A DNA stretch of 44,416 nucleotides from Escherichia phage UHP65, in sequence record PQ511047.1; one strand, written 5' to 3'. The notes under the pieces were generated by a model. That model did not search any database. It had not been told where the DNA came from and saw only the letters and a list, made by a program, of their open reading frames with translations. The first letter of the stretch is position 1. The number at the start of each line of letters is the position of its first letter. Below are positions 22,474-22,877 of the stretch, piece after piece. Both the position numbers and the translations under genes were made by a program.

Positions 22474-22793
22474 ATACTACATTCGAAGCCATTGATTTTT
22501 CGGTTGCAATGACTAACCAGTTATTCTCCTACGACAGCAAAACCGGCGTCATTCGTCTGAAGTCCACCGGCTGCAAAATTGGCAACCTTAACACTGCCGA
22601 TGGCGGCACGCGCATCGAATGCAACGGCAAAACGCTATCAGGCGCACGCGTGGCGTGGATTATCGCGACCGGCAATACAATCCCTCCAGGCTACGCCGTT
22701 GTGTGCCGCCAGCGCACGCCAGGGCACTACGGCAACCGCATTAGTAACCTGTATCTGGTAGACGTTGCGCGCGACCCAAATTTTTATTCGTAA
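22470..22793 (+). CDS. HNH_3-like endonuclease-family protein, possibly degenerate
   Basis: ARVAWIIATGNTIPPGY...GHYGNRISNLYLV resembles HNH_3 core; ATGA overlap with upstream gene. Confidence 0.45.
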   Translation: MNTTFEAIDFSVAMTNQLFSYDSKTGVIRLKSTGCKIGNLNTADGGTRIECNGKTLSGARVAWIIATGNTIPPGYAVVCRQRTPGHYGNRISNLYLVDVARDPNFYS

Positions 22794-22798
22794 ATTGG

Positions 22799-22827
22799 TT
22801 GCATAACCGTATTGGTTGCATTATATT
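22799..22827 (+). promoter_or_regulatory. sigma70-like promoter (TTGCAT-17-TATATT) with two ATTGGTTGCAT motifs
   Basis: -35 = 22799-22804, -10 = 22822-22827. Confidence 0.5.
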
Positions 22828-22877
22828 GAGGGTGTCCGGTTGGACGCCTTTTTTTTTTAATACCTGGAGACAACACG

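Follow-up and report, generated by a model that had tools for sequence, protein, structure and literature searches.

Among the described systems closest to the element reported here are the operators of lambdoid phages, or more broadly any repressor operator overlapping a sigma70 core promoter, and the middle promoters of T4. The lambdoid operators OR and OL, bound by CI and Cro, are short and conserved; several occur in each promoter of host type, where they overlie the -35, the spacer, the -10 and the +1. Our motif is alike in these respects and, likely, in controlling early transcription and in autoregulation. In lambdoid phages a dimer reads each operator, a 17-bp pseudo-palindrome, and the operators are limited to one or two control regions. 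Our motif consists of asymmetric 8-10-mers that occur in either orientation, mostly as irregularly spaced direct pairs, and is spread over ~10 promoters in a virulent phage. T4 middle promoters carry the MotA box, (a/t)(a/t)TGCTT(t/c)A. As in T4, a phage-specific word of ~9 bp recurs genome-wide at promoters with a good -10, and forward copies stand in for the canonical -35. The MotA box is always in the same orientation and register, with its centre at -30, and it depends on MotA together with AsiA. In our phage register and orientation vary, with copies starting anywhere from +27 to -7 nt from the -10 rather than at a fixed position near -30 in place of the -35. Many promoters keep a TTGAC -35, and no MotA- or AsiA-like protein was detected among ~35 small or early proteins searched at sequence-profile sensitivity.

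The window, the whole 44,416-nucleotide stretch of DNA that was analysed, is a Dhillonvirus, an E. coli siphophage 93.8% identical to phage jat. Across it the exact 9-mer TTGGTTGCA, or its complement TGCAACCAA, occurs 10 times against 0.38 expected, and 100 dinucleotide shuffles never gave more than 3 copies. This bears out the initial annotation, which had flagged a recurrent 9-mer. The word is real, but its invariant part is an 8-mer, TTGGTTGC, with 20 copies against ~2.3 expected under an order-2 Markov model; only 10 copies extend to the full 9-mer. Pooling the motif-carrying lineages gives a ten-base consensus, RTTGGTTGCR. The motif is asymmetric and its flanks carry no information, unlike the dyad-symmetric 14-20 bp sites of CI and Cro. 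The positions listed earlier were approximate: 18 of 19 fall within 0-10 nt of a core copy or of the one-mismatch variant at 19865, no copy matches 10148, and those at 9307 and 32900 had been missed. TTCCTTGC is an altered form of the core, for the design of a mutant probe.

Non-coding DNA makes up 7.6% of the window and holds 16 of the 20 core copies (binomial p = 5e-15), and three of the other four lie in the final codons of a gene, just 5' of the next. The core outnumbers every other 8-mer of non-coding DNA, with 18 copies spread over 9 of the 27 intergenic gaps. Its one-mismatch variants, by contrast, number 3 in non-coding DNA and 36 in coding sequence. Copies are usually paired, as had been noted. 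The window contains eight pairs, seven direct and one inverted, and the direct spacing is usually 12-35 bp; over the motif-carrying lineages 17 of 19 neighbouring pairs are direct, spaced by 9-37 bp. The shuffles, the Markov expectation, the intergenic bias and the conservation test described below rule out chance or a coding artefact. A signal at the RNA level is unlikely because the motif occurs in both orientations relative to transcription, and an Rfam scan of the window returned no family at threshold. Literature searches, in which some queries were loosely matched, gave no published description of the word itself and nothing relevant on Dhillonvirus promoters, intergenic motifs or transcriptomes. 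We regard the motif as a solid case of a new regulatory element of a familiar kind.

Every cluster of copies lies within a sigma70-like core promoter (Table 1), where the motif provides the -35 as TTGCNN, sits in the spacer beside the -10, or covers the start site. The hexamers are TTGACA-like and TATAAT-like, 16-18 bp apart and 5' of a gene, and on this basis they would be active promoters. Promoters D and E were called by a consensus scan, and the other eight were read from the sequence and from conserved alignments (TTGCNN or TTGACN, 17 or 18 bp, TAnnnT). In a simple sigma70 scan the region as a whole was not enriched over shuffles. Measured from the -10, forward copies start at 27, 15, 10 or -4 nt and reversed copies at 22, 21, 17, 10, 9, -6 or -7 nt, so that the motif overlaps the core promoter as operators of the CI/Cro type do. 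We found no 5'-end data for any Dhillonvirus in the literature and, as far as our searches reached, no timing or binding data for these phages.

Table 1. Motif copies, predicted promoters and candidate binders in the window (positions are those of the window).
Feature	Position	Strand	Hexamers and spacer	Motif copies	Context
Core copies (starts)	6711, 6734, 10016, 10047, 10138, 10419, 10454, 13269, 16225, 16241, 19853, 22795, 22812, 24718/24731, 27436, 43535, 43549	both			
Core copy (start)	9307				
Core copy (start)	32900				inside tail gene; probably chance
One-mismatch variant (start)	19865			TTGGTCGCA	
Promoter A	6711-6778	-	TTGACT 6743-6748; 18 bp; CATACC 6719-6724 (weak -10; TATACT in EP23)	reversed: 6734-6741 in spacer; 6711-6718 directly after -10	leftward, after terminator 6754-6778; downstream 26-codon ORF (ATG 6687-6689), phosphoesterase gene, terminase genes
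Promoter-like site B	9288-9316	-	TTGCAA 9311-9316; 17 bp; TACATT 9288-9293	reversed: 9307-9315, giving TTGCAA	inside ORF 9233-9502
Promoter C1	10015-10054	-	TTGCGC 10045-10050; 17 bp; TATATT 10022-10027	10047-10054 supplies -35; 10015-10023 over -10 end and start	leftward; 5' of gene 9512-9991
Copies without promoter	10138-10145	+			
Copies without promoter	10419-10426, 10454-10461	-			
Promoter D	13255-13284	+	TTGACT 13255-13260; 18 bp; TATCAT 13279-13284	reversed: TGCAACCAA 13268-13276 in spacer, 2 nt from -10	main rightward promoter, replication/recombination operon
Promoter E	16211-16248	+	TTGACC 16211-16216; 17 bp; TAGATT 16234-16239	reversed: GCAACCAA 16225-16232 in spacer, 1 nt from -10; 16241-16248 at ~-5 to +3	5' of ssDNA-binding gene 16305-17081
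Promoter F	19853-19885	+	TTGCTG 19857-19862; TATAGT 19880-19885	19853-19860 supplies -35; variant TTGGTCGCA 19865-19873 in spacer	5' of Zn-ribbon gene 19917-20090
Promoter G (flagged locus)	22795-22858	+	TTGCAT 22799-22804 (from first copy); 17 bp; TATATT 22822-22827	direct: 22795-22803; 22812-22820 in spacer	5' of gene 22878-23120; hairpin 22830-22848, then T10 22849-22858
Promoter H	24717-24746	+	TTGCAA 24717-24722 (left arm); 18 bp; TATCTT 24741-24746 (TATAGT in relatives)	inverted pair: TGCAACCAA 24718-24726, TAGG, TTGGTTGCA 24731-24739	5' of gene 24792-25346
Promoter I	27436-27468	+	TTGCAA 27440-27445; 17 bp; TGT-AATACT (27463-27468)	single: 27436-27444, giving -35	5' of gene 27499-27717
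Promoter J	43521-43557	+	TTGCAT 43521-43526; 18 bp; TATATT 43545-43550	43535-43543 in spacer; 43549-43557 over -10 end and expected start	5' of gene 43586-43900 and Nmad5 gene
HTH protein, 109 aa	12749-13078	-			helix residues 22-79; C-terminal three-helix HTH 84-107
Promoter of HTH gene	13093-13138	-	TTGACA 13133-13138; 17 bp; TAGTTT 13110-13115		
Inverted repeat after HTH promoter	13093-13107			degenerate copy TTAACCAA	TTGGT-CATTA-ACCAA
Zn-ribbon protein, 57 aa	19917-20090	+			CxxC...CxxC; very basic tail

The TATATT hexamer that had been seen to adjoin the motif is present at promoters C1, G and J. At the flagged locus, promoter G, 8 distinct relatives share the -10 and both copies of the motif without change and differ in the stretch that separates the copies; a start ~7 nt after the -10 would remove the 5' arm of the hairpin that follows. 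The same pattern is found in promoter E, where the -35, both motifs and TAnATT are invariant in 15 distinct relatives and the remaining spacer varies. The motif of promoter D is invariant in 15 distinct sequences, and that of site B in 13, with variable flanks. At promoter H a palindrome had been proposed at 24709-24730. The inverted repeat is real, and it lies at 24718-24739. As an intrinsic terminator it does not qualify, for the + strand continues with GTATCTTAATC. A weak terminator-like call was returned on the untranscribed - strand only. The three copies without a promoter flank an array of TGTCCCGC iterons (10265-10360) within the 482 bp of non-coding DNA that follow the helicase-primase gene.

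Alignments that include up to 34 relatives show no variation in 135 of 144 motif columns, compared with 682 of 965 other intergenic columns (Fisher p = 1e-10). The motif is under purifying selection, and the idea of a phage-lineage-specific cis element tied to promoters is supported. Orthologous promoters carry it in L020 and L022 (65-74% nucleotide identity), in a clade whose helicase is 49% identical (the 49% clade) and in Serratia phage Smarc3. The density in the 49% clade is 8-11 copies per 20 kb against 0.6 expected (seven loci). A site equivalent to promoter A precedes terS in L020 and the 49% clade. In L020, L022, the 49% clade and Smarc3, copies equivalent to those around the iterons lie either beyond the helicase gene or within its 3' end. 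The iterons beside the motif differ between lineages (TGTCCCGC, GGTGCC or TTCCGCACA) while the motif word is constant. In Guernseyvirinae relatives that share the gene order, the HTH protein is missing and the motif occurs 0-2 times. Paired-motif scans of viral_contigs and genome_contigs gave, among the matches listed, mostly chance hits.

The reading we favour, tentatively, is that RTTGGTTGCR is a protein-binding operator inside about ten sigma70-type promoters, through which they would be repressed at a set time. The motif lies in about ten host-type promoters and is unchanged in relatives, which makes it very probable that a regulator of phage gene timing docks there. The early and middle units that these promoters would head are those for replication and recombination, the lysis-proximal and moron units, and the one that runs into the terminase genes. 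Each asymmetric 8-10-bp site would take one DNA-binding domain, and most promoters offer two, usually in direct repeat at a distance of 12-35 bp that keeps to no fixed helical phase. Sites would range from about -39 to +3, over the -35 (with the TTGC of the motif as TTGCNN), in the spacer beside the -10, or at the start. By occupying them, the protein would keep host RNA polymerase out or trap it, so a global, timed turn-down of these promoters is the most likely role, and autoregulation is possible. Varying register and orientation fit steric competition and do not fit a fixed contact with RNA polymerase. Protein binding and repression are both inferred, as is the activity of the hexamers as promoters. 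Of the two labels first given to the element, promoter or operator, the second fits better, since copies overlap sigma70-like elements in varying registers and both orientations. As binder we consider most likely a phage protein that was already present in the ancestor shared by the Dhillonvirus, 49%-clade and Smarc3-like phages.

Some observations argue against this reading. The preference for direct pairs hints that orientation matters, and pure steric repression needs no orientation. At several promoters the one -35-like hexamer is that of a forward site, which makes a positive role possible there. The motif as a whole could be a positive element, read by an activator or by host RNA polymerase that a phage factor redirects, as happens at the T4 MotA box and the P1 Lpa sites, and marking a temporal class of promoters, an explanation we regard as quite unlikely. 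It would account for the forward motif as sole -35-like hexamer at C1, F, G, I and in L020, in a constant register (TTGCNN, 17 bp, -10), for pairs that mostly share one orientation, and for a copy that abuts the -10 at -22 to -13 in five promoters, a position also used by the operators of P1 late promoters. However, that position is taken in either orientation (reversed in D and E, forward in G, H and J), and other copies lie over the start site or after the -10. A conserved -35 hexamer, TTGAC(T/C), is in any case present at promoters D, E and A. Neither the annotation nor Pfam/PHROG scans revealed a sigma factor, MotA, AsiA or phage RNA polymerase, and no RNA polymerase or sigma factor gene is annotated in jat, SO-1, EP23 or CHD5UKE2.

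If the motif is an operator, a reader must be sought, and the initial annotation had proposed the HTH protein at 12749-13078. It is the only one of ~35 small or early proteins scanned with a recognisable HTH (Pfam matches HTH_23/Sigma70_r4_2/HTH_28). The motif would then be the operator of this early-made coiled-coil protein, expressed from its own near-consensus promoter, whose dimer would bridge two variably spaced sites with two flexibly linked HTH domains. In an AF2 model (pLDDT 88.8) a helix of 58 residues leads into an HTH of LuxR/sigma-4/resolvase type, an arrangement suited to paired sites of variable spacing. The HTH resembles sigma region 4, without a region 2, and comparison with the PDB by sequence and fold matched the protein only to generic HTHs of LuxR/GerE, transposases and resolvases and to a coiled-coil-like structure. 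Across 25 homologues residues 49-106 hardly change, in parallel with the invariance of the motif, and the N-terminus is variable. All genomes that encode the protein have the motif. L020 and L022 have a full GCAACCAA just downstream of the promoter of the HTH gene, at the place of the degenerate copy in the window.

The distribution of the HTH protein speaks against it, and we consider this explanation unlikely. The protein is absent from the 49% clade (13 loci) and Smarc3, so it is not found wherever the motif is. Seven loci of the 49% clade without a homologue (HMM searches covered ~70-75% of those genomes) keep both the motif density and the orthologous promoters, as does the complete genome of Smarc3, which keeps the motif and has no homologue. 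Weak HMM matches in the 49% clade are antisense junk ORFs. At the syntenic position these lineages have an XRE regulator, homologous to that of the motif-less phages VSiP and AH01, and ~20 dispersed sites would not outlast the loss or replacement of their reader. With the HTH protein missing from two lineages that keep the motif, we do not assign the binder to it; it is probably not the binder.

Other phage proteins were considered as readers. The XRE regulator of the relatives was rejected, since its versions in phages with and without the motif are homologous and their recognition helices do not differ according to whether the motif is present. The helicase-primase is an unlikely reader, as the adjoining iterons change between lineages and the motif does not. 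The Zn-ribbon protein is a weakly supported alternative, attractive because a motif-bearing promoter always precedes its gene (in 4 of 4 motif-carrying lineages and in no motif-less one) and because of its basic tail. Against it, Guernseyvirinae have homologues, and contig L203, where the motif is not enriched, encodes a stand-alone homologue of 70% identity. Proteins were also sorted by lineage, by means of BLAST, iterative HMM searches and six-frame searches; a Dam-like methyltransferase, a 72-aa protein encoded at 20134-20352 and, in part, Nmad5 were the only ones confined to motif-carrying lineages, and none is convincing as a sequence-specific regulator. No candidate binder has a distribution that fits fully.

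The methyltransferase (Dam family, 23572-24057) allows another reading, in which the motif is the target of adenine methylation and works as an epigenetic promoter switch between packaged, replicating and newly made DNA. It is the only protein present in all three motif-carrying lineages sampled and in no motif-less lineage, yet this match compares three lineages with three, and a methylation target need not be limited to promoters. PF05869 enzymes are small and either GATC-specific or non-specific, and we know of no precedent among them for an asymmetric 8-10-bp target. We regard methylation as very improbable.

A host protein could also read the motif. It would be a conserved DNA-binding protein of Enterobacterales, recruited to or tolerated at phage promoters. 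Phages of E. coli/Shigella, Sodalis and Serratia share the identical word, as do lineages whose early regulator has been swapped, and sorting proteins by lineage yielded no phage-encoded reader. The motif partly resembles the PutA operator, GTTGCA, and the CytR octamer, GTTGCATT, but its conserved positions (TTGG and TTGC, with a variable last base) are unlike the sites of either protein. Sister phages of Salmonella and Pantoea have the same gene order and no motif, and a scan of bacterial genomes for the inverted pair gave, among the matches listed, scattered chance-like taxa and no enterobacterial locus. A host reader is improbable in our estimate. A broader formulation, less likely than not, takes the motif as the code of a global regulator and supposes a reader that sequence does not reveal, either a phage protein with an unknown fold, inherited since before the Dhillonvirus, 49%-clade and Smarc3-like lineages split, or a host protein that has been hijacked. 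Such a regulator would use single domains, in either orientation, at about ten host-type promoters, and its code would have stayed fixed while the adjacent early regulator (XRE or coiled-coil HTH) and the origin iterons were swapped.

Dhillonviruses are common coliphages (BASEL Bas14-18, SECphi18 and HK578 among them) and are used in work on defence systems and phage engineering. The motif gives them a map of about ten predicted promoter/operator units, a bait for discovery of the regulator by DNA-affinity capture, and compact regulated promoter parts for phage engineering. It also offers an evolutionary case in which ~20 scattered sites would have frozen a recognition code over lineages that swap neighbouring regulators.

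The favoured reading, an operator within promoters, can be set beside three further systems. DnaA boxes (TTATCCACA) are likewise asymmetric 9-mers read by a single HTH domain, in either orientation and at variable spacing. Their promoter copies act mainly by occlusion and others flank the origin, as three copies flank the iterons here. Their sequence differs, however, with TTGGTTGCA agreeing with TT(A/T)TNCACA at 4 of 9 positions; no DnaA-like protein is encoded here, and our motif is overwhelmingly at promoters. Small phage proteins of the P2 Cox, 186 Apl and lambda Xis type also read direct repeats of ~9-10 bp over a promoter and repress it. Their arrays are phased (~10-11 bp), with 4-6 boxes at one locus, whereas our motif has 1-2 boxes per promoter at many loci and no phasing. 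P1 late promoters, which depend on Lpa and have a conserved 9-bp inverted repeat near -22, resemble ours in having a phage-specific element between -35 and -10, directly beside the -10, at many promoters. In P1 the element is a palindrome that takes the place of the -35 and serves in activation, whereas the motif described here is asymmetric, coexists with -35 hexamers and is also found over the -35 and the +1.

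As a whole, the window represents the complete and colinear genome of a Dhillonvirus, a virulent, HK578-like siphophage of E. coli. It is 93.8% identical to Escherichia phage jat over its full length. No tRNA genes were found in it, and no Rfam families scored above threshold anywhere. The recurrent intergenic motif reported in the initial annotation is real. Dinucleotide shuffles contain TTGGTTGCA or its complement 0.38 times on average and 3 times at most; the window has 10 copies. A one-mismatch search gives 24 matches where 11.1 are expected, the added matches nearly always differing in the last base alone. 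The 8-mer TTGGTTGC forms the invariant core and is present in 20 copies, whereas an order-2 Markov model predicts ~2.3. Non-coding DNA makes up 7.6% of the window yet holds 16 of the 20 copies (binomial p = 5e-15); three of the other four lie in the final codons of a gene, immediately 5' of the next. The core is the top-ranking 8-mer of non-coding DNA by a wide margin (18 copies, 9 of 27 gaps). Combining all lineages that carry the motif gives the site consensus RTTGGTTGCR, and flanking positions carry no information. The positions first listed were correct within 0-10 nt, apart from a phantom at 10148, where there is no copy; the inverted pair described as a palindrome exists, at 24718-24739 rather than 24709-24730.

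Every Dhillonvirus examined (among them jat, SO-1 of Sodalis, EP23 of Shigella, CHD5UKE2, rolling and 15 IMG/VR contigs) carries 17-21 copies in identical places. When eleven site regions are aligned, invariant columns number 135 of 144 within the motif and 682 of 965 in the remaining intergenic sequence (Fisher p = 1e-10). Within promoter spacers, motif bases are fixed while adjoining bases vary. Literature on the word, or on Dhillonvirus with promoter, intergenic or transcriptome, yielded no description of the element, and the SO-1 record annotates two iteron regions but not the motif.

The word is under selection and overlaps promoter-like hexamers. Every motif cluster coincides with a conserved, predicted sigma70-like promoter (A to J in the table), and three further copies flank the iteron array 3' of the helicase-primase gene. 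The promoters look self-sufficient, with TTGAC or TTGC at -35, 17-18-bp spacers and TAnnnT at -10. Measured from the -10, forward copies begin at 27, 15, 10 or -4 nt and reversed copies at 22, 21, 17, 10, 9, -6 or -7 nt; the slot adjoining the -10 (~-22 to -13) is occupied five times, with both orientations seen. Pairs are mostly direct (7/8 in the window, 17/19 across lineages) and spaced 9 to 37 bp apart, without helical phasing.

The motif had been proposed as a promoter or operator element, and the second term fits better. A short, exact, asymmetric word that lies anywhere in the polymerase footprint, is often doubled and is used in either orientation has the behavior of an operator whose protein applies a single reading head to each site, and not that of a promoter element that RNA polymerase touches at a fixed register. 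Because the promoters look self-sufficient and the word operator-like, we favor repression by occlusion. We infer that these promoters are active and that a protein bound to the word would occlude them, giving a timed turn-down of early and middle units.

Predicted promoters holding motif copies (A-J) and other features of the window
Feature	Coordinates	Strand	Sequence	Motif copies or remarks
Promoter A	6711-6778	-	TTGACT-18-CATACC	reversed copies: one 3' of -35, one immediately 3' of -10
Promoter B	9288-9316	-	TTGCAA-17-TACATT	one reversed copy = -35
Promoter C1	10015-10054	-	TTGCGC-17-TATATT	forward copy = -35; second over -10 end and start
Promoter D	13255-13284	+	TTGACT-18-TATCAT	one reversed copy in spacer, 2 nt off -10
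Promoter E	16211-16248	+	TTGACC-17-TAGATT	reversed copies: one in spacer, one ~-5 to +3
Promoter F	19853-19885	+	TTGCTG-17-TATAGT	forward copy = -35; variant TTGGTCGCA in spacer
Promoter G	22795-22858	+	TTGCAT-17-TATATT	forward copy 1 = -35; copy 2 fills spacer
Promoter H	24717-24746	+	TTGCAA-18-TATCTT	inverted pair: left arm = -35, right arm in spacer
Promoter I	27436-27468	+	TTGCAA-17-AATACT	one forward copy = -35
Promoter J	43521-43557	+	TTGCAT-18-TATATT	forward copy in spacer; another over -10 end and start
Scaffold/capsid promoter (predicted)	43486-43513	leftward		without motif
Promoter/terminator overlap at G	22822-22858			hairpin + T10 begins 2 nt after -10
26-codon ORF	6607-6689	-	MARKDIWVLAIWTTAAFIGMVICELI	unannotated; strong ribosome-binding site immediately 3' of promoter A; kept in relatives; resembles small membrane peptide
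Strong hairpin + T9	13210-13243	+		divergent early region, between HTH promoter and promoter D; oriented against rightward transcription arriving from left; kept in relatives
Coiled-coil HTH gene	12749-13078	-		109-aa product
Inverted repeat	13093-13107		TTGGT-CATTA-ACCAA	perfect; directly 3' of HTH promoter; invariant in Dhillonviruses
Zn-ribbon gene	19917-20090			57-aa product, basic tail
72-aa protein gene	20134-20352
Dam-like methyltransferase gene	23572-24057			PF05869
Nmad5 gene	43941-44416 joined to 1-271	+		248 codons, across the linear window's ends; unannotated in jat
Iteron stretches	10206-10379; 37643-37811			non-coding, ~170 bp, 84-86% alike; repeat regions A and B of the SO-1 record
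Iteron-like word arrays	10265-10360; 37702-37950		TGTCCCGC	6 direct copies in the first; others in the second

At promoter G the terminator lies so close to the -10 that transcripts begun there would be made without the hairpin's 5' arm. Judged from this layout, read-through from upstream would stop while newly begun transcripts escape.

The coiled-coil HTH protein had been suggested as the motif's binder. Its residues 65-105 match HTH_23, Sigma70_r4_2 and HTH_28, and an AlphaFold2 model (pLDDT 88.8) has a 58-residue helix leading into a three-helix HTH. Foldseek matched the HTH alone, its hits being LuxR/GerE/NarL, transposase and resolvase domains. With 24 clusters the family is small; residues 49-106 are nearly invariant and the N-terminus is variable. 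The gene's own predicted promoter is near-consensus (TTGACA-17-TAGTTT). Behind it lies TTGGT-N5-ACCAA in the window, and the full GCAACCAA in two relatives (L020 and L022). Among ~35 small or early proteins scanned, it is the sole recognizable HTH. The fold, the invariant residues, the motif-like site at its own promoter and the lack of another recognizable HTH made this protein an attractive candidate reader of the motif.

The distribution of motif and protein argues otherwise. We sampled 41 viral loci, reached through the adjacent helicase-primase gene. Dhillonvirus and close relatives (helicase 66-99% identical to that of the window) have the HTH protein and 4-7 cores per 10 kb. Seven loci at 48-49% identity (the 49% clade) lack the protein but carry 8-11 cores per ~20 kb, where 0.6 are expected. 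A Guernseyvirinae-like clade with VSiP and Pantoea AH01 (43-45%) also lacks it and has 0-2 cores per locus, the chance level. Relaxed HMM thresholds and extra loci, covering ~70-75% of the genomes, gave no homologue in the 49% clade, and none was found in the complete genome of Serratia phage Smarc3 (46% helicase identity; 13 copies versus 1.95 expected). Copies in the 49% clade occupy orthologous sites, namely the divergent early region, 5' of the ssDNA-binding gene, the Zn-ribbon gene and terS, and 3' of the helicase gene. In Smarc3, TTGACA-17-TATAGT-ca-TGCAACCAA lies upstream of the Zn-ribbon gene, and two motif pairs at the helicase gene end fall in three different reading frames. Both lineages have, at the position of the HTH gene, an XRE regulator homologous to that of motif-less phages. 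Since the motif is kept where the HTH protein is absent, that protein is probably not its reader. The motif system is therefore older than Dhillonvirus and survives exchange of the neighboring regulator, and its reader should be ancestral too.

The exchange itself is a non-orthologous replacement of the leftward early operon's first gene, immediately before the helicase-primase gene (window compared with relatives L024, L025, L026 and L165). The gene encodes a coiled coil with a sigma-4-like HTH in Dhillonvirus and a Cro-like XRE protein in the 49% clade, Smarc3 and Guernseyvirinae. The CHD5UKE2 version of the HTH protein has 149 aa and is conserved in the HTH alone. The inverted repeat behind the HTH promoter could be this protein's own operator; TTGGT-N5-ACCAA also forms at motif copies 10016 (one mismatch here, exact in jat) and 43549.

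A protein-by-lineage comparison (BLAST, iterative HMMs and six-frame searches) found the Dam-like methyltransferase, the 72-aa protein and the Nmad5 protein confined to motif-carrying lineages. None resembles a sequence-specific regulator. The Nmad5 protein is full-length (PF18757, 'nucleotide modification associated domain 5', E = 1e-60), and the 49% clade has homologues within its early operon. The Zn-ribbon protein might instead read the motif, as a motif-bearing promoter precedes its gene in every motif-carrying lineage. Yet one contig without motif enrichment holds a stand-alone homologue of 70% identity, and Guernseyvirinae have homologues too. A host protein is another possible reader, and phages of Escherichia, Sodalis and Serratia do share exactly the same word. 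Against this, the matches listed by an inverted-pair scan of bacterial genomes were only scattered ones, and no host factor is known to share the motif's conserved positions.

Two other repeats were seen. Relatives have other iteron words (GGTGCC in L020, TTCCGCACA in Smarc3), which would be expected of putative origin iterons co-varying with the helicase-primase. The octamer GYTGCCGT is strongly strand-polarized (41 copies on + versus 10 on -; ~5 expected in all) and evenly spread at ~1 per kb whatever the gene orientation (e.g. 601, 1510, 2201 ... 42975 on +). Its bias is reversed in the oppositely oriented records SO-1 and EP23, and Smarc3, VSiP and Pantoea AH01 likewise have an excess of it. 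The octamer may serve as a Chi-like signal or as one for replication polarity or packaging polarity.

The intergenic motif is a strongly selected, lineage-specific cis-regulatory word inside host-type promoters. It belongs to a familiar kind of element, and the identity of its reader is the most interesting part.
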